64,000 nucleotides of DNA from Escherichia phage VEcB: sequence record NC_052663.1; one strand, written 5' to 3'. The translations under genes and the position numbers were made by a program. The notes beneath the pieces are model-generated. The model was not told the origin of the DNA and searched no databases. It saw nothing but the letters and a program-made list of their open reading frames with translations. Positions 22,998 to 54,104 of the stretch are shown here, piece by piece. Within the stretch, counting starts at the first letter, position 1. Each line of letters opens with the position of its first letter.

Positions 22998-23264
22998 TTA
23001 CTCCGCAATCTGAGCCATGAATTCACGTAGTTCAGAAAAACCTCCTACGTGGGTTAGCTGTTCACCATCTTCCACAAAAATCTGAGGAAATGTACGTGGT
23101 AGAACACCTGTTTTCTCTAAGACCAGAGTCTGAATCTGATCTAAAGAATAGTCTTCATCTAAGGTAAGGTATTTAAAATCCTGTTCACGCTGTTCTAGTA
23201 GAATCTTAGCGTTAGTGCAGAAAGGACAATTTGGTTTACCGTAGATAATAAAATTCATTTTCAC
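22998..23264 (-). CDS. glutaredoxin-like protein
   Basis: CPFC active site in an 88-aa protein. Confidence 0.7.
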   Translation of the reverse strand: MKMNFIIYGKPNCPFCTNAKILLEQREQDFKYLTLDEDYSLDQIQTLVLEKTGVLPRTFPQIFVEDGEQLTHVGGFSELREFMAQIAE

Positions 23265-24091
23265 TCCTTGTTTAAAAGTATAGTTAAAGTTCTTACAATA
23301 CCGCTATCAACACTTCGCGGATTTAAAGTAGGATCTGTTTTTAAATAAGATGTTGCTGGTCTGACTGCTTTGGAATTATAGGTTGAAGCAGATACAGGAT
23401 TAACTGTAACAGATAAATCTATAACAAGAAATATCTTTCGTGCAAAATCATACCAAGAAATATAATCTGCACCTGCATAGTGTACAATTTTACTATTTAC
23501 ACCATCTTTTACAAGTTTAAAAATTGTTTCTGCAAGATCAGGTGCATAAGTAGGACATGATAAATGATCACATACTACATTAAATTCTTTTTGACCACCG
23601 TTGTAGCGTTCCAACATAGTTTTCAAAAAGTTATGTCCAAATTCACTATAAACAGAAGCTGTTCTGATAATAAGTGCTGTAGGACAAACTGTTTGTACTA
23701 AAGTTTCACCTAATTGTTTACTGTAACCGTAGGTGTTCAAGGGGTTTGTTTTACTATCTTCTGTGCCAGCAACATGCCCATCAAAAACATAGTCTGTTGA
23801 AATATGTACAAACTGTATCAGTAAATCATTACATGCTTTGGCAATGTTTGTTGCACCGTATGCATTAACATTTATACAGGTGTTAACATCTTCTTCAGCT
23901 TTATCTACTGCCGTGTAAGCCGCACAATTCACAACAACATCAGGCACGTGCTGTACAAGACTATTCATAACATCTTTAAAGTTGGTAATGTCTATATCAC
24001 TTGCTTCAATCAAAATAACATCTTCTGGTGCAACTTTTGCCAAAGATTGTCCTAATTGACCTTTTGAACCAAAGATTAAAAATTTTGTCAA
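23261..24091 (-). CDS. rmlD: dTDP-4-dehydrorhamnose reductase
   Basis: N-terminal GSKGQLG Rossmann motif, size and operon position after rmlC. Confidence 0.75.
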   Translation of the reverse strand: MTKFLIFGSKGQLGQSLAKVAPEDVILIEASDIDITNFKDVMNSLVQHVPDVVVNCAAYTAVDKAEEDVNTCINVNAYGATNIAKACNDLLIQFVHISTDYVFDGHVAGTEDSKTNPLNTYGYSKQLGETLVQTVCPTALIIRTASVYSEFGHNFLKTMLERYNGGQKEFNVVCDHLSCPTYAPDLAETIFKLVKDGVNSKIVHYAGADYISWYDFARKIFLVIDLSVTVNPVSASTYNSKAVRPATSYLKTDPTLNPRSVDSGIVRTLTILLNKE

Positions 24092-24642
24092 AATATGATC
24101 TCCTTTAGTGTTTTGGCTTCCTTATCTTTTTGTGACAAGATAGGTTTAAAATTAATATCATTAAAGATTAAATCAAAACCCCAATCAATATTGATATCTG
24201 GATCATTCCACGCAAGACTACACTCTGAAGTCGGATCGTAATATTCTGTACATTTATATTCAAAATCAGCAATGTCACTAATCACAACAAAGCCATGAGC
24301 GAAACCAGGAGGAATCCAAAATTGTGTTTTATTCTTTTCAGATAAGAGAACACCTACCCATTCTCCAAATGTTGGACTACCAACCCTAATATCTACAGCA
24401 ACATCATAAACTTCACCACGAACACAACGTACTAACTTCCCTTGTGGGTTTTTCTTTTGAAAATGAAGCCCACGTAGAACTCCTCGAATAGAACGTGAAT
24501 GGTTATCTTGGACAAAGTTTTGTTTACCTATGTATTGATCATATAAAGCCTGATTAAAACTTTCTAAGAAAAAACCACGTTCATCTCCGTAAACGTCAGG
24601 TTGAATGATCAACAAATCTTCGATTTTTGTTGCTTGAATCAT
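24088..24642 (-). CDS. rmlC: dTDP-4-dehydrorhamnose 3,5-epimerase
   Basis: RGLHFQ, KLVRC, DVAVDIR, GFAHGF cupin motifs. Confidence 0.9.
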   Translation of the reverse strand: MIQATKIEDLLIIQPDVYGDERGFFLESFNQALYDQYIGKQNFVQDNHSRSIRGVLRGLHFQKKNPQGKLVRCVRGEVYDVAVDIRVGSPTFGEWVGVLLSEKNKTQFWIPPGFAHGFVVISDIADFEYKCTEYYDPTSECSLAWNDPDINIDWGFDLIFNDINFKPILSQKDKEAKTLKEIIF

Positions 24643-24654
24643 TTAATTCCCCCT

Positions 24655-25524
24655 TTATTTTAATTTAAGTAAATACTTACCGTAGTCTGTTTTACTTAAA
24701 ACCTCTCCAGAACTTTTTACAGAGTCTAAAGTAATCCATTCATTTTTAAAAGCAATCTCTTCCAGGCATGCAACCTTCATACCTTGTTGCTTTTCTATTG
24801 CATGAACAAATTGAGATGCTTCCATAAGACTTTCATGTGTTCCTGTATCCAGCCAAGTGAAACCTCTTCCTAGTTTACAGACACGTAAAGTCTTTTCTTT
24901 CCAGTACATCTCATTTATATCTGTGATCTCTAATTCCCCTCTAGCAGAAGGTTTAACGCTTTTAGCTTTCTGTATAACAGAATTATCGTAAAAGTACAAG
25001 CCTGTAATTGCATAATTGCTTTTTGGTGCTTTTGGTTTTTCTTCAATACTTACCACTGTACCTTCAGAATCAAACTCAACAACACCAAATCTTTCAGGAT
25101 CATTTACGTGATACCCAAAAATATTAGCTCCACCATTCTTTTCAATATGTTCTTTAGCAGAATCTAAAATGCTACCAAAACTCTGACCAAAGAACAAATT
25201 ATCACCTAGAACAAGTGCTACAGAATCTTCACCAATAAAGCTCTCACCAATAATAAACGCTTCTGCTAAACCTTTTGGGTTGTCCTGTATTGCATACTGT
25301 AGGGAAATACCAAAAGAAGAACCATCACCTAGAAGATTTACAAAATTAATTTGATCTTCTGGTGTCGTAATTATTAGTATTTCCCTAATTCCAGAAAGCA
25401 TTAGGACAGAGAGTGGATAATAAATCATAGGTTTATCGTAAATTGGTAATAGTTGTTTACTAACCCCTTTAGTAACTGGGTAAAGTCTTGTTCCACTACC
25501 ACCTGCTAAGATAATACCTTTCAT
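24655..25524 (-). CDS. rmlA: glucose-1-phosphate thymidylyltransferase
   Basis: [16 protein letters not shown] nucleotidyltransferase motif, 289 aa. Confidence 0.9.
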
Positions 25525-25532
25525 ACTCCTCC

Positions 25533-26522
25533 TTAAACTTTATTTTCCCACCACTCTTTGTTATCTACATACCAATCAATGGTTGAATAAAGTTTTTCTT
25601 CAAATGTGCCTTTAGCTTTCCACCCTAATTCCTTTTCAATCTTATAAGGATTCACTTCATATCTTAAATCATGCCCAGGCCTATCTGTAACCATCTCAAT
25701 GAGGCTACAAGCATCTGTTTCAGATGGATACACCGCATCCATATAATCACAAATCATATAGATTACATCAATATTAGTTCTAGGGTTTCTGCTCCCAATA
25801 TTATATGTTTCTCCAGATTTGCCTTTAGTTACTACTAGGTGTAATGCTTCTGCGTGATCGTCAACGTATAACCAATCTCTTACTTGAAGACCATTGCCAT
25901 AAACAGGGATTGGTTTATGCATCAAAATATTTGTTATCGTTTTAGGTATTAGTTTTTCTGGATGATGATACGCTCCAAAATTATTTGAACAATTTGTTAT
26001 AACTGTCGGAATACCATAAGTACGATGCCACGCTCTTACCAAATGATCGCTTGCTGCCTTAGATGCAGCATATGGACTACTTGGCTTATAAGGATTCTGT
26101 TCTGTAGACGGATAATCCCCTTCTTCCAGATCACCATACACTTCATCTGTTGAAATATGATGAAACATTTTAAGATTTGATTTATCTCCCATTAAACGAA
26201 CAGCTTCTAGAAGATTAAATGTTCCAACAATATTTGAATTTATAAAAACACTCGGTGATGCTATTGAATTATCTACGTGACTTTCTGCTGCAAGATGCAT
26301 TATATAATCTGGATTAACATCTGCCACAATCTTAGCAGTTAACTGAGCATTTGTCAAGTCAACACGACAAAACTTTACATTAGGTGTTTCTGATAAATTT
26401 CTAGGGTCTGAAGCGTAACCCCATTTATCTATAACGTAAATATCATTCTTAGTGTTTTTAGCCAGGAAACGAACTACCGCACTTCCAATAAAGCCTAAAC
26501 CACCTGTTACTAAGTATTTCAT
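25533..26522 (-). CDS. rmlB: dTDP-glucose 4,6-dehydratase
   Basis: [12 protein letters not shown]-binding motif, short-chain dehydrogenase layout, 329 aa. Confidence 0.85.
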
Positions 26523-34001: not shown

Positions 34002-34548
34002 TATTTCTCCTGTTATAACATTTTCTACACATTGTTTCGTAAATATCTTCTCCTCCAATAACAATCTGTTCTTTAGAGTCGATAAGTCTAGCATTGAAAA
34101 TAGCTTTTCTTCCACATTTACAAATGCTTTTCAATTCTGTAATTGAATCTGCTATGGCTAATAACCGTTCAGAACCTTCAAACAATTCTGTAGCAAAATC
34201 TGTTTTAAGCCCATAACAGAATACAGGAATATCGTAATTATCTACCACATCTCCAAGAATGTCAACCATATCTTTAGTTAGGAATTGTGATTCGTCCACA
34301 AACACTGCATCTACTGGATTTTCTTTAAGTTGTGTATAAATTTCCAGCATATCTTCTTTTGTTTTTACTGGTTTTGCTTCCTCTTTAATACCTATCCTAG
34401 AAGCAATAGCACAACCAGATCTGGTATCTAAAGCTGAAGTTAAAAGAAGAACTTTCATATTTCTTTCTTTATAGTTCCAAGCTGTTTGTAGCAGATGTGT
34501 GCTTTTACCACTGTTCATCGGACTATATCGGAAATAAAGTTTAGCCAT
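33985..34548 (-). CDS. tdk: thymidine kinase
   Basis: P-loop SPMNSGKST, C-terminal CKCG...CRKC zinc motif. Confidence 0.85.
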   Translation of the reverse strand: MAKLYFRYSPMNSGKSTHLLQTAWNYKERNMKVLLLTSALDTRSGCAIASRIGIKEEAKPVKTKEDMLEIYTQLKENPVDAVFVDESQFLTKDMVDILGDVVDNYDIPVFCYGLKTDFATELFEGSERLLAIADSITELKSICKCGRKAIFNARLIDSKEQIVIGGEDIYETMCRKCYNRRNNASSM

Positions 34549-34562
34549 ATTTTCTCCTCTAA

Positions 34563-34582
34563 CGCTCCCATTTGTGGGAGCG
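34563..34582. other. stem-loop CGCTCCCA-TTTG-TGGGAGCG between HNH gene and tdk
   Basis: 8-bp perfect inverted repeat; orientation of function unclear. Confidence 0.4.
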
Positions 34583-34593
34583 ATAATACTTTA

Positions 34594-35169
34594 TTATTTC
34601 TCTTCGTCAAGAAGAATTTTTACTATTTGTTTTCTTCGCTTACTTACTGTACTTTCTGGTGAAATTCCGCGCTTCGTTAGCCAATTTTTATCCTTTTTAG
34701 ACTGGCATAAAGCTATCGCTTCCTTCTCCGCTTTTGCTTCCCTGAATGTCATATCGTGCTTGTCAGCATAAGCCAAGATAGCGTTACACTGCTTACAAAC
34801 TACACGCAGGTCGTCTTCTGTTACGTACAATAGGCGTAAAACAAAACTTGGGATATCTTCATAACAGGTTAATGTACCTGCTGCATTAATATGGTCTACT
34901 TGAAAGTCTTTCATACCTCCTGTATGTCCACACAATTCACACTTACAATTCCAAACCTGTTTCGGTTTGCCTGTTTTCTTATCTAAAACTATATTTCCAT
35001 CTTTATCCAACCTATCCGCTTTAAATCGTACAGATTGGATCTTTTTTATCTTATTCGGGTGTCTCACCCATGCTTTCCTTAAGCAACCCCTTAAATATGT
35101 ATAAAAGGCTGCTTGAGTTTTCCAAGGTGTTCCATCTCCCCAAATAACTTTAGGTTCTTTATTTTCCAA
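34594..35169 (-). CDS. HNH endonuclease
   Basis: CELCGHTG...DHINAAG...CKQCN HNH zinc motif. Confidence 0.7.
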   Translation of the reverse strand: MENKEPKVIWGDGTPWKTQAAFYTYLRGCLRKAWVRHPNKIKKIQSVRFKADRLDKDGNIVLDKKTGKPKQVWNCKCELCGHTGGMKDFQVDHINAAGTLTCYEDIPSFVLRLLYVTEDDLRVVCKQCNAILAYADKHDMTFREAKAEKEAIALCQSKKDKNWLTKRGISPESTVSKRRKQIVKILLDEEK

Positions 35170-40296: not shown

Positions 40297-40926
40297 TTAT
40301 GTTTTAATCTTGCCAAAATACAATACTTCAGCTTCCTGTCTTGCTGATATAGCATCTTCAATATCAATAAATGCTCCAAGACGGATATCTTTTCCTTGAT
40401 AGGATATACGAGCAATCCATCTTTTTTCTTTCTCGCTCCACACAACACCTGTTTTACCAGAAGTGTTATTTTTCTGTTTTCGTGTATTGTATGACTGGAC
40501 AGACCTTGTAGCCCAGCGACAATTTTCTTTACTGTAATCTTTTTCAGAGTCTATTCTGTCAAGAGATAAACCTTTAGGTCTATCTCCCATATCCTCAAAG
40601 AATGCAGAGAATGAATTTCTCCAAGCATCACAAACCTTAATACCACGACCACCGTAGTATTCAAAGTGAGTATTGTTTTTGTTATAGCATCTCCCTAACA
40701 TAGCTTCCCACGATTTGTATGCTCCTGTTTGTGTTGTTTTCGGTCTACACTTGGAACAATAAGAACTTCTATTCTTCCTAAGTGTTTCCATAGTTACCGT
40801 GCAAATATTACCACAATCACAAGAACAAGTAAAACGTCTTTTGCCATGTTTGTCCCTTTCAATCTCTTCTAAGACAGTATAACAACCGCATTTCTTACCT
40901 ACAAGGTCTACTCTCTTGGCTCCCAT
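40297..40926 (-). CDS. homing-endonuclease-like protein with Cys-rich N-terminus and AP2 domain
   Basis: RWIARISYQGKDIRLGAFIDIEDAISA AP2-type motif; paralog of 28717-29373. Confidence 0.4.
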   Translation of the reverse strand: MGAKRVDLVGKKCGCYTVLEEIERDKHGKRRFTCSCDCGNICTVTMETLRKNRSSYCSKCRPKTTQTGAYKSWEAMLGRCYNKNNTHFEYYGGRGIKVCDAWRNSFSAFFEDMGDRPKGLSLDRIDSEKDYSKENCRWATRSVQSYNTRKQKNNTSGKTGVVWSEKEKRWIARISYQGKDIRLGAFIDIEDAISARQEAEVLYFGKIKT

Positions 40927-42764: not shown

Positions 42765-43169
42765 TTATTGTAGCTTAAGTGAACTGCGAAGACGTTTCTC
42801 TTGCTGATCACGAATATGTTGTGGAACCTCATGAATTGAGTCGTTACCGTGCCTATTTTCAACAACTAAAGAGATAACTTGATAACCAAACTCTTCGGCA
42901 AGAGTAAAATAAGGTTTAAGTTCTTTCTCTGTGGTTGAAGTGTTAGAGACAATAATCTTTTTAATATTAGATGCCATAGCATCACGAACAATACTCTGAC
43001 ACCATGCGTGTGCTTTACCTACATTTTCTGGCTTCCAATCGTAAGCCCCGTTTTCTGTGTAATGATATTGATCTGCCTCACAGATAGGCCAATAACCTTC
43101 AGAAATAATTTCTGCTACTGTAGATTTACCTGCACCTGAAACACCACGTAAAATGATAAGTTGTTTCAT
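42765..43169 (-). CDS. P-loop kinase (polynucleotide-kinase-like)
   Basis: Walker A GVSGAGKST in a 134-aa protein directly downstream of the ligase-like gene. Confidence 0.55.
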   Translation of the reverse strand: MKQLIILRGVSGAGKSTVAEIISEGYWPICEADQYHYTENGAYDWKPENVGKAHAWCQSIVRDAMASNIKKIIVSNTSTTEKELKPYFTLAEEFGYQVISLVVENRHGNDSIHEVPQHIRDQQEKRLRSSLKLQ

Positions 43170-44102
43170 TTAGCCTCCAAAGAAGTTTTCTATTTCTTTA
43201 CGTCGCTCTTGTGGGTCTAGAGCAGCCCATTGAACCTTCGTAAAGTTATTTCGAAGCCATTCTAGCAAAGTATAATATTCTTCGTCAACAATTTGTTTAG
43301 CATTTTTTGGGTTGTCCCAAATCATATCCCACTTCTTATTGCCACCACGCATAAGGAACTTCTTAGCAAGATAGTATGGTGACTTAATCTTTAAGAGTAA
43401 GTTAAACGGATAGTTTGTTTCACGAACAACAAAGCCTTCGTGTCTACAATGTTTAGACATTTCAACAACATCTGAAAATTTAATCATCGGATAAACTTCA
43501 GGACGTTTAAATTTTGTAATAGATGCAATCCCATCAAGAACACCTTCAGGTAACATGAAACTTGTCCCATCCAGGTTTTGAATTCTTGCTCCAATTAAGT
43601 ACGCGCCTGGTTCTTCTTCGACAATATGTGGATCAGAAGGATCGCAGATTTCAAAAAGAAAAGTTGCTTTTGCACTTTCTGTCCACTTAATGAAATACTC
43701 TATGTCGTCACACTCGGAAACAATACGGTTCTTTGCCATAATTGCAAAATCTGATTCTAGGCTCCCTGTTGTTGATACAACAAGTTTCCCTTTGTACACA
43801 CCTACAGATGCCATAAAACCGTTTACTTTACGGACAGCATCTACAAGTTGGTCTGCTGGAAGATCTGTACCATTTTCAAAACGATTAAAGATTTTAGTAA
43901 AAGGCCAAATAACAACATTGTCTTCTGAGTCAACAACCAACCCACGACAATCTAGAAGGCGTTTGTCTACGTCCCACAAATTGTCCCAGAATACATTGTT
44001 TTTGTATTTAAGTACAGCAAGACCAGCATACTCTCCAGATTTAACTTCTTTTTTATGCACTAAACCTTTTGCAATCAGGTCATCACAATTGAACTTAGCC
44101 AC
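43170..44102 (-). CDS. RNA-ligase-like covalent nucleotidyltransferase
   Basis: motif I KVNG, motif IV EGFVVR, motif V LKIK. Confidence 0.5.
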   Translation of the reverse strand: MAKFNCDDLIAKGLVHKKEVKSGEYAGLAVLKYKNNVFWDNLWDVDKRLLDCRGLVVDSEDNVVIWPFTKIFNRFENGTDLPADQLVDAVRKVNGFMASVGVYKGKLVVSTTGSLESDFAIMAKNRIVSECDDIEYFIKWTESAKATFLFEICDPSDPHIVEEEPGAYLIGARIQNLDGTSFMLPEGVLDGIASITKFKRPEVYPMIKFSDVVEMSKHCRHEGFVVRETNYPFNLLLKIKSPYYLAKKFLMRGGNKKWDMIWDNPKNAKQIVDEEYYTLLEWLRNNFTKVQWAALDPQERRKEIENFFGG

Positions 44103-44103
44103 C

Positions 44104-44655
44104 TTAATCTCCTTTGATTATCTTATGATGATCTACAACAACAATATCACGCTTATCCATAATAGAGATGATTTCGTCAAAATGCAAGATTTTTCCGTGT
44201 ACGTCCCAACCAACATCCAACATTTTCCCATACAAATGATCAGGGAATGATCCGTGAGAGTGCCCGTGTAGCATGATTGATCCATGCCCTTGTTTATTCC
44301 AGGCAGCCATAGGGTAATGACTTAAGACGAAGAACAGTTTCTGATATTTCACTTCGTCATAATATACCACTTCACCATACTCTGCAAGCACTTTTCTGTG
44401 CTTACTGTAATCATGGTTCCCAACACAGTAAGTAATATCCCCTTGGAGACGGGAAGCAATCTTACGGGTATCTTCTTCAGTCCCGAAACAGAAGTCCCCA
44501 AGATGGTACATTTTTACTCCTGGTGTTGTGGCACATTTGTTCCATGCTTCGATCAGTGCTTCTGTCATATGCTCCATATCTTCCCACGGGCGATATTCAG
44601 GAGCAAACTCTCGAATACGTTTGTGCATAAAATGCAAATCACTTGTAATAAACAT
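44104..44655 (-). CDS. calcineurin-like metallophosphoesterase
   Basis: SDLHF, GDFCFG, GNHD, HGHSHG motifs. Confidence 0.7.
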   Translation of the reverse strand: MFITSDLHFMHKRIREFAPEYRPWEDMEHMTEALIEAWNKCATTPGVKMYHLGDFCFGTEEDTRKIASRLQGDITYCVGNHDYSKHRKVLAEYGEVVYYDEVKYQKLFFVLSHYPMAAWNKQGHGSIMLHGHSHGSFPDHLYGKMLDVGWDVHGKILHFDEIISIMDKRDIVVVDHHKIIKGD

Positions 44656-45017
44656 TAGTATAATCCCTCGCTGAATAGTTCACTGTCGTGACCATTTCTT
44701 TCATAGTTAATTTGTTTGGCGTTATCTGCAATGATATAAGCATCTTTGCGACTCCACCAATTATAATACTGATCAATAAACCCTTGATTATCAGGTAAGC
44801 AAAACAGTTTATCGATCAATCCTGCATCTTTTAAAACATTAAGTTGTGCAGATAGTACAGGATTTGCATGCCTAACACAAGGAATAATTAACTCTTCGCC
44901 ATTGTTGAGAATATACTTATTCGCAGCGCAGACTATAACACGTTGAGCATAGTGATCCTCACCAATCCAGGTAAGAGGTTGGTAACAAATATCATGTTGA
45001 TTAGTAGCGCACATCAA
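44655..45017 (-). CDS. hypothetical protein
   Basis: 120-aa ORF. Confidence 0.45.
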   Translation of the reverse strand: MMCATNQHDICYQPLTWIGEDHYAQRVIVCAANKYILNNGEELIIPCVRHANPVLSAQLNVLKDAGLIDKLFCLPDNQGFIDQYYNWWSRKDAYIIADNAKQINYERNGHDSELFSEGLY

Positions 45018-45169
45018 TTTTCTTCATACTCTTCGTCTGTATATATATCGTAAAAGCAATCTTCAAAAGTTGCAAGTGCTTTTTCTACATCGGGCCAATG
45101 GTTAGTGTGTTTGTATACATAAAACCCATCCCCTTCATCTACCCAAATAACATAAAGCATAACACCTCC

Positions 45170-45544
45170 TTAATAGTTAACACGTTTAATTTCAACACCA
45201 TAGGATGAAATAAAATTTTCCTTAGCTAACATATATTTACCAGCAGCAGAAGGATTTGATGTATGAACATAGATAGTTTTAAGAGCATCCCATTCACCTG
45301 CGTACAACATACATTCTACATCTAAGAACGCATGATATCCTTCTTGATCTTCCCCAAGATCATTATCGAAGTGTATTTCTGAGATGTTATTGAAATTATC
45401 TTCATCTGAAACAAAAGATGACCAATCCCCAAAAGATTTTAACCAAATGGCATCCTCATAACCATAATCTTTAGGATCTCTTAAATCGTCTAACCAAAGA
45501 ATTTTAGCCACTATCAACCCCCTTCCTGTTTCTCTTCTTTCCAA
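45170..45544 (-). CDS. hypothetical protein
   Basis: 124-aa ORF. Confidence 0.45.
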   Translation of the reverse strand: MERRETGRGLIVAKILWLDDLRDPKDYGYEDAIWLKSFGDWSSFVSDEDNFNNISEIHFDNDLGEDQEGYHAFLDVECMLYAGEWDALKTIYVHTSNPSAAGKYMLAKENFISSYGVEIKRVNY

Positions 45545-47479: not shown

Positions 47480-47508
47480 TTGACTTTAGATCTATCTGTA
47501 TGTAGAGT
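47480..47508 (+). promoter_or_regulatory. sigma70-like promoter TTGACT-N17-TAGAGT
   Basis: hexamers 40 nt upstream of PRPP-synthetase-like gene in AT-rich divergent region. Confidence 0.5.
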
Positions 47509-47547
47509 AGAGAACATAAAGTCCTAACTCAACTAAGGAGATAAACA

Positions 47548-48441
47548 ATGAAAGTTAGTATTCTACATGGTGTTGACTGTTATGTTACTGATGTAGACGT
47601 TAAAGTCTTTACATTCTCTGGTGGAGAACAACATGTTCAACTAGACACGAATCTATCAGGTTTCAATCATGCTACAGACAGAATCTTACTCTCTTTAGAA
47701 GTAAGATCTGCTAAAGACTTGATGACTTTGGTTATGACTAAGAATGCATTGGACAATATGCTATATCATAAACCATATTGTGTTGATTTGCTCATGTTGT
47801 ATGTGCCATATGCACGACAAGACAGAGTGTGTGAACCTGGGGAAGCATTCGGAGTTAAAGCATTTGCTTCTATAATTAATTCATTAAATTTCTCACGTGT
47901 TATCGTTGCTGATCCACATAGTGATGTTACTCCAGCGGTGTTTGACAGACTCTGTGTAATACCTCAAGAAGAGATTGCTTACGAAACTTTAAAGTGGAAG
48001 TTACGTATGGAGAATTTTGCTCTTGTTAGTCCTGATGGTGGTGCTCTTAAGAAAATATTTAAATTATCTAAGAAAATGTCTTTAGATGTGTTCTGTGCAG
48101 AGAAGGTTAGAGATACTGCAACAGGTGCTATTGTTCGTACAGACATTTCTGTACAGGATTTCAATAAGCGTAACCTGATGATCGTAGATGATATCTGTGA
48201 TGGTGGTAGAACTTTTATCGAATTGGCTAAAGTGCTACGTGCTCGTAACGCAGGTAAGATTGAGTTATATGTTACACACGGTATCTTTTCTAAAGGTCTT
48301 AAAGAGTTAAGTGAGCACTTTGACTGCATTCATTCTCTTAATGTGTGGGAAGATAACATCCAAGAAGATTCCGGTGTTCTTGTTAAGAATCAGTCAGATT
48401 TGCAACAACAAATTGTATCTCCATACGTGTGGAATTTTTAA
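47548..48441 (+). CDS. ribose-phosphate pyrophosphokinase family protein (PRPP-synthetase-like; candidate Adps of an NAD+ reconstitution pathway)
   Basis: YARQDR, VSPDGG, MIVDDICDGGRT motifs. Confidence 0.8.
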   Translation: MKVSILHGVDCYVTDVDVKVFTFSGGEQHVQLDTNLSGFNHATDRILLSLEVRSAKDLMTLVMTKNALDNMLYHKPYCVDLLMLYVPYARQDRVCEPGEAFGVKAFASIINSLNFSRVIVADPHSDVTPAVFDRLCVIPQEEIAYETLKWKLRMENFALVSPDGGALKKIFKLSKKMSLDVFCAEKVRDTATGAIVRTDISVQDFNKRNLMIVDDICDGGRTFIELAKVLRARNAGKIELYVTHGIFSKGLKELSEHFDCIHSLNVWEDNIQEDSGVLVKNQSDLQQQIVSPYVWNF

Positions 48442-48451
48442 ATAATAAATG

Positions 48452-48480
48452 TTGACAATAGGGAGTATGCTTAGTAAGAT
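48452..48480 (+). promoter_or_regulatory. sigma70-like promoter TTGACA-N17-TAAGAT
   Basis: consensus -35 and -10 directly upstream of the Nampt-like gene. Confidence 0.55.
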
Positions 48481-48512
48481 ACTCCCACACTAACAAACAA
48501 GGAGACATAACT

Positions 48513-50246
48513 ATGAATATTTTTGCACCTTTTGCTACTGATTGGTATAAGCCTGGTCACAAGCAGATGTACAACCAAAATACAAAACTCATTTTCTCTA
48601 ATTTAACTCCTCGTAATGATAAAAACTTTGCACACTATGCAGATCGTGAAGCACGTGGTGTCATTGTTTTAGGTATTCGTCGAGCAGTAACCGATGCTCT
48701 TGTAACTATGTGGGACGGCTTCTTTAAAATGTCTCGTAGTGCAGCAGTAAATAAATTTTATCGTATGTCTAAAAATGCATTAGGTGCTTCTGCTCCTTCT
48801 GCTGAATGTTGGGGAGAATTGCACGATTTAGGTTATCTTCCGCTAGAAGTTCGATCTCTGCCAGAAGGTGTTTTGTGTCCTATTGGTGTTCCTGTGTTTA
48901 CTGTGCATAACACTTTAGAAAAATTCTTTTGGTTAACTAACTATGTGGAAACACTATTGTCAGATGAAACTTGGAAGACAATGACTAACGCCACAGCAGC
49001 TTTTCAGTATAAGCGTATCGCTATGGCGTATGCGATGGCAACGTGTGATAACATTGATCACGTTAATTTCCAGTGTCATGACTTTAGTCTACGTGGCTTA
49101 AGCAATATCGAAGATGGTTATAAGAGTGGTATCGCTCATTTGGCATCTTTCACAGGAACAGATAATATTCTGGCTATTGAGACTGTGCATGATTATTATG
49201 GTATTGATTATGATCAGTTTGTTGCAGGTTCTATTCCGGCAACAGAACATTCAGTAGCAACGACTAACATTGGAGCTATTGTTGAAGATCTGAAGAAACA
49301 TTTCCCACATCTTAAAGATGATGTTGATGGGCTTCGTTATGTAGCAGAGAAAGAGTTTCTTCGCCGCTATATCGAAGAAATTGTTCCAGAAGGTTTTTGT
49401 TCATATGTAGCAGATTCTTATGACTACTGGGCTGTCTTGACTCGCATTCTGGTAGAATTGAAAGAATCCATTATGTCACGAAATGGTCGTCTTGTTATTC
49501 GTCCAGATTCAGGAGATCCGGTTAAAGTTGTTGCAGGATACAATGTTGAATCTTTTGATAACTATGAAGACCTTTTAAATAATGGTATTGCTCCAGCCAC
49601 TGAAGTAGTTCATTTGGCTGATGTTAATAAGTATTACAATGTTCTTCAGGATTGCAGTGTTGCTGATTGTATTGATGAAACTTATGAGATTCCTTATTGT
49701 GAAGCAGTAGGTTCTATTCAAATCCTTTGGGAAGTGTTTGGTGGTACTATCAACCGAAAAGGCTACAAGGTTCTTGATCAGCACATCGGTATGATTTATG
49801 GTGATTCTATTACTGTTGAACGAGAACACGAAATCTTACGCCGACTGAAGAAGAAAGGTTTTGCAGCTTCCAATATTGTATTTGGTGTTGGTAGTTATAC
49901 TTATCAGTTCAATACACGAGATACTTTTGGTTTTGCTGTTAAAGCAACAGGTAGTATCATCGGTGAACACGAAATTTTGGTAAGTAAGGAGCCTAAAACT
50001 GATCCTGGTAAACGTTCTGCAAAAGGTTTTATTAAGGTTGTTAAGGATACAAACGGTAAACTTTCTCTCGTGGATAATCTTTCTTTTAAAGATATTCAAG
50101 ATGAAGACAATGAGTTAAAAGTTATCTTCAGGGATGGTACGGTTATTACACCACAAGTAGAAGGACGTGATGAAACATTTACGGATATCCGCAATCGTGT
50201 TGATGTAGAGGTTCTTCGTACTATGGGAACCATCCAGGTTGACTAA
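48513..50246 (+). CDS. nicotinamide phosphoribosyltransferase family protein (Nampt/NadV-like; candidate Namat)
   Basis: 577 aa; N-terminal FATDWYKPGHKQMY and overall layout typical of the Nampt family. Confidence 0.8.
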   Translation: MNIFAPFATDWYKPGHKQMYNQNTKLIFSNLTPRNDKNFAHYADREARGVIVLGIRRAVTDALVTMWDGFFKMSRSAAVNKFYRMSKNALGASAPSAECWGELHDLGYLPLEVRSLPEGVLCPIGVPVFTVHNTLEKFFWLTNYVETLLSDETWKTMTNATAAFQYKRIAMAYAMATCDNIDHVNFQCHDFSLRGLSNIEDGYKSGIAHLASFTGTDNILAIETVHDYYGIDYDQFVAGSIPATEHSVATTNIGAIVEDLKKHFPHLKDDVDGLRYVAEKEFLRRYIEEIVPEGFCSYVADSYDYWAVLTRILVELKESIMSRNGRLVIRPDSGDPVKVVAGYNVESFDNYEDLLNNGIAPATEVVHLADVNKYYNVLQDCSVADCIDETYEIPYCEAVGSIQILWEVFGGTINRKGYKVLDQHIGMIYGDSITVEREHEILRRLKKKGFAASNIVFGVGSYTYQFNTRDTFGFAVKATGSIIGEHEILVSKEPKTDPGKRSAKGFIKVVKDTNGKLSLVDNLSFKDIQDEDNELKVIFRDGTVITPQVEGRDETFTDIRNRVDVEVLRTMGTIQVD

Positions 50247-50317
50247 ATAAAAACTTCGTGATAAGATTAAGGTAAGGAGAGCCTGCAACTGCCCTGGATG
50301 GGCTTCACGAAGGATTT

Positions 50318-50659: not shown

Positions 50660-50689
50660 TTGACAACATAGCTAGTTATTTGCTAAGAT
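50660..50689 (+). promoter_or_regulatory. sigma70-like promoter TTGACA-N18-TAAGAT
   Basis: hexamers upstream of 50720 gene and the first tRNA block. Confidence 0.5.
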
Positions 50690-50986: not shown

Positions 50987-50994
50987 TATTCAAG

Positions 50995-51070
50995 GTTCCA
51001 TAGCTCACTGACGAGAGCGCACACCTCATAAGTGTCGAGGGCAGGGATTGTAACCCTGGGGAACCACCAT
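50995..51070 (+). tRNA. tRNA-Met (anticodon CAT)
   Basis: acceptor GGTTCCA/GGGAACC, anticodon loop CTCATAA, CCA encoded; T-loop atypical. Confidence 0.6.
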
Positions 51071-51101
51071 TTAAAAGGAGGTGCTATGCATCTCCTATAT
51101 G

Positions 51102-51187
51102 CAAGTGTGGTGGAATTGGTGATACACATTGTGCTTAAAACGCAACGCTTAAATGATTGAGGGTTCGAATCCCTCCACTTGCACCAA
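51102..51187 (+). tRNA. tRNA-Leu (anticodon TAA), class II
   Basis: acceptor GCAAGTG/CACTTGC, anticodon loop CTTAAAA, long variable arm, T-loop TTCGAAT, CCA. Confidence 0.7.
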
Positions 51188-51189
51188 CG

Positions 51190-51295
51190 CCTAGTAGGGT
51201 ATTTGGTAATTCCGAGGCCATCAAAGCCTGAAAAATATGTTAGACCGTTTTGTCTAACTAAATACGAAATATGGTTCGATTCCATAACTAGGCTC
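51190..51295 (+). tRNA. atypical tRNA-like gene (about 106 nt; anticodon-like loop CATCAAA, TCA)
   Basis: perfect 7-bp acceptor GCCTAGT/ACTAGGC and T-arm TATGG-TTCGATT-CCATA but about 30 extra nt with a 7-bp extra hairpin. Confidence 0.35.
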
Positions 51296-51329
51296 CCGAT
51301 TTAAATAGTAATTTTTTAATAAAAATATC

Positions 51330-51358
51330 TTGACATTTACTTAGTTTTTTGTTATAGT
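51330..51358 (+). promoter_or_regulatory. sigma70-like promoter TTGACA-N17-TATAGT
   Basis: consensus hexamers immediately upstream of tRNA-like gene at 51370. Confidence 0.6.
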
Positions 51359-51369
51359 TACTATGAAAA

Positions 51370-51451
51370 CGGGGTGTATCTCACCTGACTTCTAATCAGG
51401 CGTTAACCGAGTAATTGGAGTATGCAGGTTCGAATCCTGTCACCCCGGCCA
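51370..51451 (+). tRNA. atypical tRNA-like gene (anticodon-like hairpin with TCT, no canonical D-arm)
   Basis: acceptor CGGGGTG/CACCCCG, T-arm GCAGG-TTCGAAT-CCTGT, CCA; hairpin CCTGA-CTTCTAA-TCAGG lies too close to the 5' end. Confidence 0.35.
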
Positions 51452-51469
51452 AAAAGTTTTAAAAACTAC

Positions 51470-51499
51470 TTGACAAGCAAGATAGTTTTATGTTAGATT
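51470..51499 (+). promoter_or_regulatory. sigma70-like promoter TTGACA-N18-TAGATT
   Basis: hexamers upstream of tRNA-Ser at 51515. Confidence 0.55.
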
Positions 51500-51514
51500 T
51501 AAAGTATGGTAACA

Positions 51515-51604
51515 GGAAGGTAGGGCGCAGCGGTGCGCAACCAGGTTTGAACCCTGGCCCATTGTAGCGATACGGTGATGGTTCGACTCCATTATCTTCC
51601 TCCA
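51515..51604 (+). tRNA. tRNA-Ser (anticodon TGA), class II
   Basis: acceptor GGAAGGT/ATCTTCC, anticodon stem-loop CCAGG-TTTGAAC-CCTGG, long variable arm, CCA. Confidence 0.7.
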
Positions 51605-51782
51605 AATTCAATGAGTGATTTTATGAATTATAAAACTATTGGACAGGTTGTTACCGGAGTTAAGATTGTAAATAATAAAGTTGTTTATGAGTATTCTAAT
51701 CTTCAACAATCTGAAGATGGTAAGAATATTCGTATGGTAAAAGCAGAACAAAAAGATTCCGGTTGTTTTGAATAATTAAAAA

Positions 51783-51868
51783 CGGTAGATTGGTGAAATG
51801 GTAGCCACAACAGTTTGCTAAACTGTCGTCGGAAACGGCGTGTAGGTTCAAGTCCTACATCTACCGCC
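51783..51868 (+). tRNA. tRNA-Ser (anticodon GCT), class II
   Basis: acceptor GGTAGAT/ATCTACC, anticodon stem-loop ACAGT-TTGCTAA-ACTGT, long variable arm, CCA. Confidence 0.7.
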
Positions 51869-51997
51869 AAGTTATCTTTAATGTAGCGTTGAGGCTACTT
51901 ACTTTAGCAGAGTAAACTTTCGGCAGATGGTGGCAGCCATTTTACCGATACCTCATAGTCAGTGCCGCAAACACTGGCTATTTTAAAGATAATTTAT

Positions 51998-52072
51998 ACA
52001 TCGTTAGCTTAGTTGGTAGAGCAAGGGCTTTTAACTCCAAGGTCGAAGGTTCGAATCCTTCACGATGTACCA
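51998..52072 (+). tRNA. tRNA, probably Lys (anticodon TTT)
   Basis: acceptor ACATCGT/ACGATGT, D-loop AGTTGGTA, loop CTTTTAA, T-loop TTCGAAT, CCA; anticodon stem weak. Confidence 0.5.
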
Positions 52073-52077
52073 AACAC

Positions 52078-52164
52078 GTAGGTATCGCATAGCGGCAATT
52101 GCTGGAGACTGTAAATCTCCTGCCCTTCGGGGCTTCGTTGGTTCGAGTCCAACTACCTGCACCA
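52078..52164 (+). tRNA. tRNA-Tyr (anticodon GTA), class II
   Basis: acceptor GTAGGTA/TACCTGC, anticodon stem-loop GGAGA-CTGTAAA-TCTCC, long variable arm, CCA. Confidence 0.7.
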
Positions 52165-52171
52165 AATTAAA

Positions 52172-52256
52172 GATGGATTGGCCTAGTGGTTGGGCGACGG
52201 ACTGTTAATCCGTGAACGAAAGTTCTAGCAAGGTTCAAATCCTTGATCCATCGCCA
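52172..52256 (+). tRNA. class II (long-variable-arm) tRNA with anticodon GTT
   Basis: acceptor GATGGAT/ATCCATC, perfect anticodon stem ACGGA/TCCGT with loop CTGTTAA, 15-nt variable arm, discriminator G, CCA. Confidence 0.55.
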
Positions 52257-52260
52257 AATA

Positions 52261-52329
52261 GTGCTTGTAGAGTTAATAGAAACCTCTAGAATTTTCTAGA
52301 ATTGTAGGTATCAAATCCTACCAAGCAAA
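52261..52329 (+). other. degenerate tRNA-like element
   Basis: 6-bp acceptor-like pairing and T-arm-like GTAGG-TATCAAA-CCTAC but palindromic TCTAGAATTTTCTAGA instead of anticodon arm, no CCA. Confidence 0.25.
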
Positions 52330-52335
52330 TATTTT

Positions 52336-52410
52336 GCTCCTATCGTATAACGGCTATTACGGTTGCCTTGTAAGCAACTTATCAGGGTTCGAGTCCTTGT
52401 GGGAGCACCA
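52336..52410 (+). tRNA. tRNA-Thr (anticodon TGT)
   Basis: acceptor GCTCCTA/TGGGAGC, anticodon stem-loop GTTGC-CTTGTAA-GCAAC, T-loop TTCGAGT, CCA. Confidence 0.7.
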
Positions 52411-52427
52411 ATTTTAACTCTAAAGGA

Positions 52428-52757
52428 GTGTATGTGACAGAAAAAGAGTTAGAGAAATATTTTAATATCAATGTTTTCGATGGTTTTGATGATATTGAAG
52501 ATGTTGAAAGATATTATGAAGTAGAGTTAGATAGGGATAACATTGTAATTCTTTCTGCCACTTATGATTGTGCATATTATGAAGGCGAATCTCACGTTTA
52601 TTTTTATGATATGAAAACATCTTTGTTTTATGAAGTACACGCATATCATTGTTCTTGTTATGGCTTAGAAGGTCAGTGGGAACCTGAAGAAATAGGTGAT
52701 TTGGACTTTACTATTGCATATCTAAACAGACGTGGTTCATCTACTATTTTAAAATAA
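52428..52757 (+). CDS. hypothetical protein
   Basis: 109-aa ORF (GTG start after AAGGAG) inside the tRNA cluster. Confidence 0.45.
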   Translation: MYVTEKELEKYFNINVFDGFDDIEDVERYYEVELDRDNIVILSATYDCAYYEGESHVYFYDMKTSLFYEVHAYHCSCYGLEGQWEPEEIGDLDFTIAYLNRRGSSTILK

Positions 52758-52771
52758 ATATCAAAAGCCTC

Positions 52772-52801
52772 TTGACAAAGGGGCTAATAATATGTTAGAG
52801 T
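52772..52801 (+). promoter_or_regulatory. sigma70-like promoter TTGACA-N18-TAGAGT
   Basis: hexamers upstream of tRNA-Gly. Confidence 0.5.
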
Positions 52802-52812
52802 AATATTGTTAA

Positions 52813-52887
52813 GCGGGTATAGTGTTAATGGTAGCATATGAGGTTTCCACCCTCCAGGTGCAGGTTCAAGTCCTGTTACTCGCTCCA
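52813..52887 (+). tRNA. tRNA-Gly (anticodon TCC)
   Basis: acceptor GCGGGTA/TACTCGC, anticodon loop TTTCCAC, T-loop TTCAAGT, CCA. Confidence 0.65.
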
Positions 52888-52986
52888 AGATTATTTAAAT
52901 GGAATCGCTAGAGAAAATTTCTCTTTTTGCTCATGGTTTTCTCCTTCAAACTCTAGCGGTTCTTTTTAAGTGATTTTTTAGTTTAT

Positions 52987-53061
52987 TGGAGATTAGCCTA
53001 GTGGGAAGGCAACGGCCTTTGAAGTCGTGATGACTAGGTTCGATTCCTAGATCTCCAGCCA
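52987..53061 (+). tRNA. tRNA-Gln (anticodon TTG)
   Basis: acceptor TGGAGAT/ATCTCCA, anticodon stem-loop ACGGC-CTTTGAA-GTCGT, T-loop TTCGATT, CCA. Confidence 0.65.
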
Positions 53062-53103
53062 ATTAATTGCATAGCATGAGTATTTCTCATTGGTTAAAAG
53101 GAG

Positions 53104-53469
53104 ATGCAAGTGAATTGTGAACATTGTGGTAGTGAGTTTACTTTGATAAAAGGTCATGGTGGACAAAACAGATTATACTGTTACACTTGTATTCCAGAAG
53201 GTTTAGATAAACAAGTACACACAAGATTACATCAAGAGCTTAGAAGAGAGCGATCTCATAGGATGAAACTTGATTTAGGTTGCAAAGTGTGTGGTTATGC
53301 TAAATGTGCAGTAGCACTAGAATGGCATCACCCAGAGGACGATAAGAAACACAATCCATCAAATGCAATCAAAAGATCTTGGTCTGCTTACTTAGAAGAG
53401 ACTGAAAAGTGTATCTTACTATGTGCCAATTGTCATAGAGAAGTACATGCTGGTCTTATACAGGTTTAA
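53104..53469 (+). CDS. HNH endonuclease (free-standing, inside tRNA cluster)
   Basis: CEHCG...CYTC zinc ribbon then WHHPEDDKKHN...CANCHREVH HNH motif. Confidence 0.7.
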   Translation: MQVNCEHCGSEFTLIKGHGGQNRLYCYTCIPEGLDKQVHTRLHQELRRERSHRMKLDLGCKVCGYAKCAVALEWHHPEDDKKHNPSNAIKRSWSAYLEETEKCILLCANCHREVHAGLIQV

Positions 53470-53470
53470 T

Positions 53471-53546
53471 CAGTGCGTAGCGCAGTTGGTAGCGTGGGAG
53501 CCTTGGACGCTTCAGGTCGCAGGTTCGAGTCCTGCCGCACTGACCA
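53471..53546 (+). tRNA. tRNA-Pro (anticodon TGG)
   Basis: acceptor CAGTGCG/CGCACTG, D-loop AGTTGGTA, anticodon stem-loop GGAGC-CTTGGAC-GCTTC, T-loop TTCGAGT, CCA. Confidence 0.7.
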
Positions 53547-53551
53547 AATTT

Positions 53552-53626
53552 GCAGAGATAGCTGAGACGGATTAGTGCTACCCTGAAAAGGTAGAAAGGA
53601 TGGATCGTTACCATCTCTCTGCACCA
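53552..53626 (+). tRNA. tRNA-Phe (anticodon GAA)
   Basis: acceptor GCAGAGA/TCTCTGC, anticodon stem-loop CTACC-CTGAAAA-GGTAG, CCA; T-loop ATCGTTA atypical. Confidence 0.65.
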
Positions 53627-53703
53627 AATAACACCATCCAAGGAGTAGACTTGGTTAACTGTCAATAGCACATTGAGGCTTCTTACAGTGGTGTACTTAT
53701 TAT

Positions 53704-53788
53704 GGCTAAGTGGTGGAATGGTATACACGATACGCTTAGAACGTATTGCCCCAAGGGATTGTGAGTTCGAGTCTCACCTTAGCTACCA
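53704..53788 (+). tRNA. tRNA-Leu (anticodon TAG), class II
   Basis: acceptor GGCTAAG/CTTAGCT, anticodon stem-loop ATACG-CTTAGAA-CGTAT, long variable arm, T-loop TTCGAGT, CCA. Confidence 0.7.
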
Positions 53789-53803
53789 AATTATTACAGA
53801 TTG

Positions 53804-53882
53804 TGCGGGATAGAGGAGTCTGGTCGTCCTCGCCAGTTTCATATGCTGGAGATCATCGGTTCGAATCCGATTCCCGCCTCCA
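53804..53882 (+). tRNA. tRNA with anticodon CAT (Met or lysidine-type Ile)
   Basis: acceptor TGCGGGA/TCCCGCC (1:72 unpaired), anticodon stem-loop CCAGT-TTCATAT-GCTGG, T-loop TTCGAAT, CCA. Confidence 0.6.
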
Positions 53883-53947
53883 ATAAATACCTCCCTTCTG
53901 GTGTAATGATTAAGTTACATTGACACTTCAAGGAAATCATAGCCGGG

Positions 53948-54023
53948 TAGATTTAAAAGAGTATGGTACTCAATATGGCTCCAAACCATAGATCAAGGGG
54001 TTCGATTCCTCACCTTGCTGCCA
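53948..54023 (+). tRNA. tRNA-like gene, possibly Trp (anticodon CCA); acceptor pairing not confirmed
   Basis: anticodon stem-loop TATGG-CTCCAAA-CCATA and T-loop TTCGATT plus CCA, but no 5' strand complementary to CCTTGCT found. Confidence 0.3.
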
Positions 54024-54028
54024 ATTAT

Positions 54029-54104
54029 TGTGGTATCGTACAGATGGTTAGTACACTCGACCGATAATCGAGAAACAACGGTTCGACTCCGTTTACCACG
54101 ACCA
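54029..54104 (+). tRNA. tRNA-Ile (anticodon GAT)
   Basis: acceptor TGTGGTA/TACCACG, anticodon stem-loop CTCGA-CCGATAA-TCGAG, T-loop TTCGACT, CCA. Confidence 0.65.

Follow-up and report, generated by a model that had tools for sequence, protein, structure and literature searches.

NARP1 (NAD+ reconstitution pathway 1) is known from the E. coli phage Bas63/JohannRWettstein, the Bacillus phage SpbetaL1 and the Vibrio phage ICP1 (Osterman et al. 2024, bioRxiv 10.1101/2024.02.11.579819; PMC12774641; PMC13586617; referred to below as the NARP1 literature). NARP1-type biochemistry has been described for the enzymes of SpbetaL1, ICP1, DyoEdafos and P. foliorum, and for the Adps of ICP1 the synthesis of ADPR-PP has been shown and structures have been solved (NARP1 literature). 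Bas63 and cloned operons have been shown to counteract such defences; in vivo, genes 79-80 of Bas63 overcome SIR2-HerA and restore NAD+ (NARP1 literature). The pathway explains how phages survive abortive-infection systems that destroy NAD+, and recognizing it in therapeutic or model phages helps to predict their host range on strains carrying Thoeris, DSR, SIR2-HerA, SEFIR and similar systems.

Related arrangements have also been described. NARP1-AP operons have the order Adps-Adpp-Namat, where Adpp is a Macro ADPR-1''-phosphate phosphatase (bioRxiv 10.64898/2026.01.28.702374), and other NARP1 operons contain RyDEP (bioRxiv 10.64898/2026.05.28.727677). NARP2, as found in Vibrio phage KVP40, consists of NadV/Nampt and NatV/Nmnat.

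Here, we describe a pair of genes that is very probably the phi92-lineage copy of NARP1, composed of Adps and Namat. It is located in a 64-kb stretch (the window) of the ~147-kb genome of a phi92-like myovirus of the genus Justusliebigvirus, which is ~99% identical to phi92 over the locus. In the proposed mechanism, Adps would make ADPR-PP from ADPR plus ATP, and nicotinamide would then displace the pyrophosphate of ADPR-PP in a reaction catalyzed by Namat, giving NAD+ directly. Because NAD+ would be made directly by Namat, no NMN adenylyltransferase (NMNAT) would be needed. The NAD+ rebuilt in this way from ADP-ribose and nicotinamide would allow the phage to overcome NAD+-depleting bacterial defences. 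By homology to tested enzymes, with which the two proteins share 35-41% identity, we infer that the pair has both activities and gives this phage the anti-defence phenotype.

The pair is already known, in that its lineage was catalogued among NARP1 components by Osterman et al. 2024. Their Table S1 of Adps homologues includes phi92 FR775895_00103 and PaulScherrer (Bas60) MZ501100_00239, both with the entry ‘Namat within 10 genes: Yes’, and their Table S2 of Namat homologues lists FR775895_00104 and MZ501100_00240 as ‘Adps-associated’ (bioRxiv 10.1101/2024.02.11.579819). These orthologues are 99-100% identical to the window pair. Our literature search found no paper reporting a NARP1 experiment in a phi92-like phage. 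In the public records of ~55 phi92-like genomes the pair is still named ribose-phosphate pyrophosphokinase and nicotinate/nicotinamide phosphoribosyltransferase, and the value of the present identification for this window is mostly one of annotation hygiene.

The two genes lie side by side on the plus strand, as the sequence-only reading had stated. The first, adps (47548..48441, + strand), encodes a Prs-like protein of 297 aa and is the orthologue of phi92 gp107; the second, namat (48513..50246, + strand), encodes a Nampt-like protein of 577 aa and is the orthologue of phi92 gp108. Both start with ATG and are preceded by an AAGGAG ribosome-binding site, at 47535..47540 (+ strand), 7 nt 5' of the adps start, and at 48499..48504 (+ strand), 8 nt 5' of the namat start; these were read from the sequence, and equivalent sites are annotated in phi92. 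An AT-rich spacer of 410 bp separates the rightward block that holds the pair from a leftward gene block that ends at 47137.

Gene order and strand (Prs-like, then Nampt-like) are the same as in the NARP1 loci of Bas63, ICP1 and Dax, and several features are common to the window and to NARP1: the DDICDG PP loop, the catalytic lysine, the LYVTHGIFSKG block, the GSYTYQxxTRD motif of the adenine clamp (SCH) and the lack of an NMNAT. The spacer between the two genes contains no ORF and is longer in the window (71 bp, with a promoter-like element) than in Bas63 (45 bp) or ICP1 (33 bp). The NARP1-AP and RyDEP-containing operons have the two core enzymes as well; unlike these, the window operon has no Macro or RyR-domain gene in it or beside it, Pfam having detected neither a Macro phosphatase (Adpp, PF01661) nor a RyR-domain RyDEP (PF02026) in the flanking ORFs.

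The main alternative is ordinary salvage, where the Prs-like enzyme would make PRPP from ribose-5-phosphate, the Nampt-like enzyme would make NMN and the host NadR/NadD would complete NAD+, so that the pair would boost the NAD+ supply during infection. We consider this very unlikely. It agrees with the public annotation of the pair as a ribose-phosphate pyrophosphokinase and a nicotinamide/nicotinate phosphoribosyltransferase, but the Adps and Namat of Bas63, which were shown to work otherwise, carry the identical annotation and obtain similar scores. All of the sequence-level discriminators that we examined favour Adps and Namat over Prs/Nampt salvage.

The 297-aa protein matches PF00156, PF14572 and PF13793 in Pfam, the last below its cut-off, and phrog_619 in PHROGs (E 5e-91). 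All of the Prs motifs reported for it by the sequence-only reading are present (PYARQDRV, LVSPDGGAL and IVDDICDGGRTF). With cellular Prs, represented by E. coli Prs (PDB 4S2U/7XMU), it has in common the two-domain PRTase fold, the acceptor-site R, H, D and DD..D residues and the YARQDR and SPD motifs; the differences are a low identity, a remodelled PP loop and an unmatched Prs C-terminal segment. In blastp comparisons, the protein is 40.9% identical to ICP1 Adps (158 bits) and 35.4% identical to Bas63 Adps (136 bits), compared with 28.0% for E. coli Prs (73 bits). The donor-site PP loop, for which we used the Adps pattern DDICD-G-x-x-S/T-F, reads DDICDGGRTF and is identical in Bas63 Adps, whereas that of E. 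coli Prs reads DDMIDTGGTL. Ten residues of ICP1 Adps (F18, R87, H121, D161, K185, D212, D213, I214, C215 and D216) are all kept, and in window numbering the residues include R90, H124, D163, K186 (the catalytic beta-hairpin lysine), D214, D215, I216, C217 and D218. The adenine contact F92 of ICP1 Adps is replaced by C95 in the window protein and by M102 in the functional Bas63 protein.

The profile comparisons point in the same direction. The protein does pass the broad TIGR01251 subfamily model, as salvage would have it, but barely (118.8 bits against a cut-off of 113; E. coli Prs scores 422.7); Bas63 Adps scores 138.5 and ICP1 Adps, although it makes ADPR-PP, scores even lower on Prs models, at 98.2. 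All of the NCBIfam Prs equivalog cut-offs are missed by ~200-480 bits, as in the case of NF002320 (99.6 bits against a cut-off of 297, compared with 532.6 for E. coli Prs), and the verified Adps proteins of ICP1 and Bas63 likewise fall short of every one of them. The TIGR01251 match runs no further than position 253 of the 309 in the model, leaving the Prs C-terminal module (254-309) unmatched, and the last ~30 residues appear from the sequence to form a tail of their own that does not align with the Prs C-terminus. As a cellular Prs would be recognized by a curated equivalog or PRK01259 score together with a full-length match that includes the C-terminal module, the protein does not qualify as one. 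The comparison with Adps and Prs profiles that the sequence-only reading had proposed thus places the predicted protein on the Adps side rather than the Prs side.

The second protein had been read as a member of the Nampt family, and its match to PF04095 (E 2.6e-37) bears this out; it also matches phrog_448 in PHROGs (E 2e-187). It also passes NF006629, which, like the TIGR01251 match of its neighbour, would fit salvage. When searched against the PDB with phmmer, its best match is to the crystal structures of SpbetaL1 Namat (9W5X/9W5W, 397 bits, E 1e-117), followed by 9KE8/9KEO (E 3e-100), and human Nampt is found with 168 bits (E 4e-48). The protein shares 39.6% identity with Bas63 Namat and 35.7% with ICP1 Namat, and in blastp Bas63 Namat gives 398 bits compared with 135 + 85 bits for the KVP40 Nampt, whose nadV sequence we located via a primer sequence. 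Its catalytic core is intact (HDFSLRG, FTGTD, ATEHSV, VIRPDSGDP and IYGDS) and aligns with those of Bas63, ICP1 and SpbetaL1; this holds also for the catalytic His and for the Arg that corresponds to R306 of SpbetaL1. Two insertions (~252-283 and ~343-399) coincide in position with those of Bas63 Namat, the second being shorter in the window protein.

Two elements of the nucleotide site are of particular use here. The published Namat-only SCH signature is GSX-phi-X-phi-X-phi-TRD (NARP1 literature), and the window protein has GSYTYQFNTRD at this place, where Bas63 has GSYTYQYMTRD and ICP1 has GSYTYQYVTRD; the motif is absent from Nampt enzymes, and the NARP2 Nampt of KVP40 has GGGLLQQLDRD, without the aromatic adenine-stacking residues. 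In the selectivity-clamp loop (SCL) of Namat, the stacking residue is an Arg at position 3 or the residue that follows a Lys/Tyr (NARP1 literature). The window loop reads PR-N-D-K-N-F, with Lys as third residue as in Bas63 and ICP1, Asn as fourth residue where Bas63 has Trp and ICP1 has Tyr, and Phe as fifth residue as in Bas63, so that K-N-F stands against the K-W-F or K-Y-S of tested NARP1 systems. Adenine stacking from this loop, with Asn at the fourth position, is putative. With the SCH motif present and a Namat as best PDB match, the comparison with Namat and NadV that had been suggested puts this predicted enzyme on the Namat side rather than the Nampt side.

Findings on the characterized enzymes also bear on salvage. 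In its favour, Namat enzymes retain the ability to produce NMN from PRPP in vitro (NARP1 literature), so that the window pair may also form some NMN. Against it, the SpbetaL1 enzyme yielded no PRPP-type product, rescue of NAD+ was also assayed in a host without pncC and nadR, and ADPR-PP was detected in vivo (NARP1 literature). The preference of the sequence-only reading for NARP1 over ordinary salvage is supported by the Adps loop, the SCH motif, the lack of an NMNAT and the tables of the discovery paper.

A second alternative takes the same two enzymes and assigns them another main purpose, the recycling of by-products from the phage's own NAD+ consumers, with host NADases coming second. The consumer would be a CobB-like sirtuin, and a Macro enzyme encoded elsewhere would turn O-acetyl-ADPR or ADPR-1''-phosphate into ADPR. 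A CobB-like Sir2 gene is indeed present in the window at 12187-12999. In relatives, a Macro protein of the Poa1p/Tk.4 type is encoded whose identity to the Macro protein of Vibrio phage Dax, from an Adps-Macro-Namat operon, is 38.6%. The proposal is drawn purely from gene content, though, and co-occurrence with a sirtuin is unspecific, since 981 records contain phage Sir2 homologues, T5-like and KVP40-like phages among them. Furthermore, the sirtuin and Macro genes are at least 35 kb from the NARP1 pair, and experiments in other phages have established that NARP1 acts against defences. We regard recycling as the primary role as a remote prospect.

The Macro protein of the relatives is a homologue of the NARP1-associated Macro phosphatase and is conserved in the genus; in the relative PD06 it is gp061. 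Its gene lies ~60 kb from the pair, beside genes for a PRTase_3 protein and a HAD hydrolase, and the Macro part is joined to an additional stretch of ~85 aa on its N-terminal side. Conceivably, phi92-like phages run an extended NARP1 ‘in trans’, in which the distal Macro protein would feed ADPR into Adps, either from ADPR-1''-phosphate generated by the aRES defence or from the O-acetyl-ADPR of the phage's own sirtuin; we think this rather improbable. If true, it would imply that a wider range of defences is countered or that there is a closed, phage-internal NAD+ cycle. Unless such a link to the distal Macro protein or the sirtuin is real, nothing conceptually new follows from the locus.

Returning to the pair as a copy of NARP1, the lack of an NMNAT that the sequence-only reading had noted in the window is borne out by Pfam, which found none of PF01467 (the NMNAT family), NadR and PnuC among 108 window ORFs; NUDIX, Macro and RyR domains were not found among 98 of these ORFs. 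Four large ORFs in 55906-62783, which lay outside the Pfam scan, were assigned as terminase, portal, scaffold and major capsid from their position and order relative to the annotation of relatives. The remainder of the genome was judged from a relative's annotation and a few Pfam checks. An NMNAT just outside the window would have pointed to salvage; for the relative PD06, whose genome is complete, the annotation of the remaining part contains no NMNAT, NadR or PnuC, and no NMNAT-like product is annotated in phi92 1-50 kb.

The common features of the pair and NARP2 are a Nampt-family fold and the HDF.RG, GTD, EHS and RPDSG motifs; in KVP40, nadV has no adjoining Prs-like gene, unlike the namat of the window. 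A NARP2-type pathway, with the Nampt-like enzyme making NMN and a phage NMNAT encoded elsewhere in the genome completing NAD+, is very improbable: the window leaves room for it by covering 64 of ~147 kb, and PD06 annotates a 197-aa ‘nucleotidyltransferase’ outside the equivalent region, but that protein has a weak match to the PolyA_pol/CCA-adding head (E 0.0015) and none to PF01467, and the second window protein has the Namat SCH motif rather than the KVP40-type sequence and belongs to the class that Osterman et al. consider Adps-associated.

Finally, we looked at the non-coding features of the locus. In the whole window, Rfam matched tRNAs alone, and a repeat scan of the locus gave just short two-copy matches, which we regard as chance. 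The sequence-only reading had each gene behind its own consensus promoter. Candidate sigma-70-like sites do occur upstream of both genes: TTGACT-17-TAGAGT (47480..47508, + strand; 9/12 consensus positions) precedes adps within the 410-bp spacer and TTGACA-17-TAAGAT (48452..48480, + strand; 10/12) lies in the adps-namat spacer; both come from a consensus scan, and the former is a consensus match only. However, a general sigma-70 scan of the region gave 20 promoter-like sites compared with 14.3 +/- 4.4 in shuffled controls, which is no overall excess, and only a narrower pattern is enriched; for this reason, separate promoters for adps and namat are no more than plausible. The narrower pattern, TTGAC[AT]-N17/18-TAAGAT, is present in four copies in the window against 0.19 expected. 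Three of the four lie in intergenic spacers belonging to this plus-strand block or on their borders, and the candidate at 48452..48480 is itself one of the copies.

Our analysis supports the interpretation of two adjacent plus-strand genes, adps (47548-48441, 297 aa) and namat (48513-50246, 577 aa), as a putative NARP1 operon, the pathway that makes NAD+ from ADP-ribose (ADPR) and nicotinamide. In this pathway, ADP-ribose pyrophosphokinase (Adps) would convert defence-generated ADPR and ATP to ADPR-pyrophosphate (ADPR-PP), and Namat, a nicotinamide ADP-ribose transferase, would combine ADPR-PP with nicotinamide to give NAD+. Both activities and the phenotype are predictions, based on homologues of 35-41% identity, signature residues and the missing NMN adenylyltransferase (NMNAT). 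Together with the Adps-type loop of the first protein and the clamp motif of the second, these support the sequence-only reading, which had proposed NARP1.

Both ORFs are found in the ORF list exactly where that reading had placed them. They are separated by a 71-bp spacer, and AAGGAG precedes each of them. The first protein has weak phosphoribosyltransferase/Prs domains in Pfam and matches phrog_619 ('ribose-phosphate pyrophosphokinase', E 5e-91); the YARQDR, VSPDGG and IVDDICDGGRT motifs noticed earlier are all present. The second belongs, as had been suggested, to the nicotinamide phosphoribosyltransferase family, with a strong NAPRTase-family match in Pfam and a match to phrog_448 ('nicotinamide phosphoribosyl transferase', E 2e-187). 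About 54 phi92-like Escherichia coli myoviruses (genus Justusliebigvirus, subfamily Stephanstirmvirinae), including phi92, alia, muut and the BASEL phages PaulScherrer, EmilieFrey and JohannJBalmer, match the locus at 98-99% identity. Here, phi92 coordinates minus about 631 give window coordinates, so the pair corresponds to phi92 gp107 and gp108. These are the first genes of a rightward block, which diverges from a long leftward one with genes for nucleotide metabolism and replication. Downstream of the pair come a tRNA array and, after it, the genes for terminase, portal and capsid.

Published homologues include genes 79-80 of phage Bas63, previously annotated as Prs and Nampt, which enable this phage to withstand SIR2-HerA and to restore NAD+ (Osterman et al., bioRxiv 10.1101/2024.02.11.579819). 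In the same work, ADPR-PP builds up in infected cells, the first gene's SpbetaL1 homologue pyrophosphorylates ADPR but gives no product in a PRPP-synthetase-type assay, and the second enzyme forms NAD+ from ADPR-PP and nicotinamide, preferring ADPR-PP over PRPP. The behaviour of these verified homologues argues against ordinary salvage by a conventional Prs and Nampt, the main rival explanation, which we consider very unlikely.

The Adps-type loop of the first protein also speaks against salvage. Published ICP1 Adps structures show a remodelled PP loop, catalytic Lys185, ADPR contacts and loss of the Prs C-terminal module. In a four-way alignment, the first protein keeps all of the ICP1 residues F18, R87, H121, D161, K185, D212, D213, I214, C215 and D216; its PP loop, DDICDGGRTF, is the same as that of Bas63, whereas E. 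coli Prs has DDMIDTGGTL. An LYVTHGIFSKG block is common only to the three phage proteins, and at the ICP1 F92 position the first protein has Cys and the functional Bas63 enzyme Met. By blastp, it is nearer to Adps of ICP1 (40.9% identity, 158 bits) and Bas63 (35.4%, 136 bits) than to E. coli Prs (28.0%, 73 bits). It scores 118.8 bits on the broad NCBIfam subfamily TIGR01251 (cut-off 113), against 422.7 for E. coli Prs, and falls hundreds of bits below every Prs equivalog cut-off; ICP1 Adps (98.2) and Bas63 Adps (138.5) show the same pattern. The TIGR01251 match of the first protein extends only to model position 253 of 309, which leaves the Prs C-terminal segment undetected. Its best PDB matches are cellular Prs proteins (E about 1e-15), in a PDB set that includes no Adps chain.

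The third argument against salvage is the 'selectivity clamp', described in SpbetaL1 Namat crystal structures (9W5X, 9W5W) with the signature GSX-phi-X-phi-X-phi-TRD and absent from Nampt. The clamp helix reads GSYTYQFNTRD in the second protein, GSYTYQYMTRD in Bas63, GSYTYQYVTRD in ICP1 and GGGLLQQLDRD in KVP40. The variable clamp loop is K-N-F (Bas63, K-W-F; ICP1, K-Y-S), which leaves a stacking residue from that loop uncertain. The catalytic core is intact. Overall similarity again places the protein nearer to Namat: among solved structures those of SpbetaL1 match it best (E 1e-117, 397 bits; human Nampt, 168 bits), and in blastp it scores 398 bits against Bas63 Namat, 316 against that of ICP1 and 135 + 85 against the NARP2 enzyme KVP40 Nampt. 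Two insertions (about 252-283 and 343-399) account for its length and lie at the same sites as those of the 593-aa Bas63 Namat, which makes them compatible with function.

The sequence-only reading had recognised no NMNAT in the window, and Pfam scans of the 98 other ORFs likewise revealed no PF01467, nor any NUDIX, Macro, RyR or PnuC domain. An NMNAT just outside the window would have favoured ordinary salvage; none is annotated in the rest of the genome of the relative PD06 (NC_052653). The PD06 'nucleotidyltransferase' was considered as an NMNAT and rejected, being weakly PolyA_pol-like by Pfam.

It is highly improbable that the role of the pair centres on NAD+-consuming enzymes of the phage itself. 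A CobB-like class III sirtuin of 270 aa (12187-12999, -; Pfam SIR2 E 1.3e-22; phi92 gp038) places one such enzyme in the same genome as NARP1; in the PDB it matches E. coli CobB best (1S5P, E 6e-18), the GAGxS and HG motifs being aligned, and homologues occur in 981 phage records, T5-like and KVP40-like phages among them. Least probable of all is a NARP2-type pathway, in which Nampt and Nmnat would act as in KVP40.

The NARP1 pair is already known: Supplementary Table 1 ('Adps homologs') of Osterman et al. includes phi92 FR775895_00103 and PaulScherrer MZ501100_00239 ('Namat within 10 genes: Yes'), and at least 30 of its rows carry the C-terminal 12-mer of the window Adps; FR775895_00104 and MZ501100_00240 appear as 'Adps-associated' in Supplementary Table 2. 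With exact orthologues in these tables, the pair is of low interest for discovery. The Adps of phage VivaForever matches the window protein at 100% identity and that of muut at 99.7%; we found no experimental NARP1 test in a phi92-like phage in the literature.

The only reading with some novelty concerns a Macro-domain 'phosphatase' of the Poa1p/T4 Tk.4 family (238 aa; annotation and Pfam), encoded outside the window at PD06 34372-35088 (+). In phi92-like phages its gene adjoins ComF-like PRTase_3 and HAD hydrolase genes, next to TerC/TerD-like genes. Vibrio phage Dax encodes a Macro protein (2989-3465) between Adps and Namat, the NARP1-AP architecture, whereas the phi92-like copy is distal to NARP1; the Macro domain of the latter is 38.6% identical to the Dax protein (E 1e-24). 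NARP1-AP is reported to defeat aRES defence (bioRxiv 10.64898/2026.01.28.702374). That the distal protein is an ADPR-1''-phosphate phosphatase (Adpp) serving NARP1 in trans is conceivable but doubtful.

Each gene had been credited with its own consensus promoter. A promoter-like sequence does precede each, TTGACT-17-TAGAGT (+) 40 bp upstream of adps and TTGACA-17-TAAGAT (48452-48480, +) in the adps-namat spacer, but such sites are overall not enriched over shuffled controls. One particular pattern, TTGAC[AT]-N17/18-TAAGAT, has four exact matches in the window against 0.19 expected from shuffling (48452-48480, 50239-50267 and 50660-50689, +; 26329-26357, -); three of these lie inside intergenic spacers, or at a spacer edge, in the rightward NARP1/tRNA block. 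The pattern may represent a phage promoter class, and with this enrichment separate promoters are plausible.

The tRNA array (50994-54104, +; 15 genes by ARAGORN) begins 750 bp downstream of namat. One tRNA-like match (51370-51448, 38.6 bits) comes from Rfam only, and two of the tRNAs called by ARAGORN (50994-51069 and 51515-51604) are absent from the Rfam results. Records of phi92 also carry a 'hypothetical tRNA' (phi92 49736-49886) within the Namat coding sequence, equivalent to window ~49105-49255 (+); it looks like an annotation artefact, since no tRNA is found there by either ARAGORN or Rfam.

Directly upstream of NARP1 lies an RNA-repair-like cluster (42765-45544, -), probably related to tRNA repair because the tRNA array is adjacent. 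It comprises an AAA_33/AAA_18 P-loop kinase (42765-43169; phi92 'ATPase' gp095; position assigned to a Pfam match in an ORF batch), a T4 Rnl1-type RNA ligase (43170-44102) and a metallophosphoesterase (44104-44655), both by Pfam, and a cREC_REC 'cyclic-phosphate processing receiver' domain protein (45170-45544, E 4e-13). Between a MazG-like pyrophosphohydrolase and DNA ligase, a 209-aa ORF (40297-40926, -) represents, compared with phi92, an insertion of about 630 bp; phi92 has nothing there but a 59-aa gene and about 200 bp of spacer. No Pfam match was attributed to it in a batch scan that lacked member-by-member assignment. Finally, four consecutive dTDP-rhamnose pathway genes (23261-26522, -) match an RmlD-like reductase, a dTDP-sugar epimerase, a glucose-1-phosphate thymidylyltransferase and a dTDP-glucose 4,6-dehydratase in Pfam, with the same annotation in phi92.
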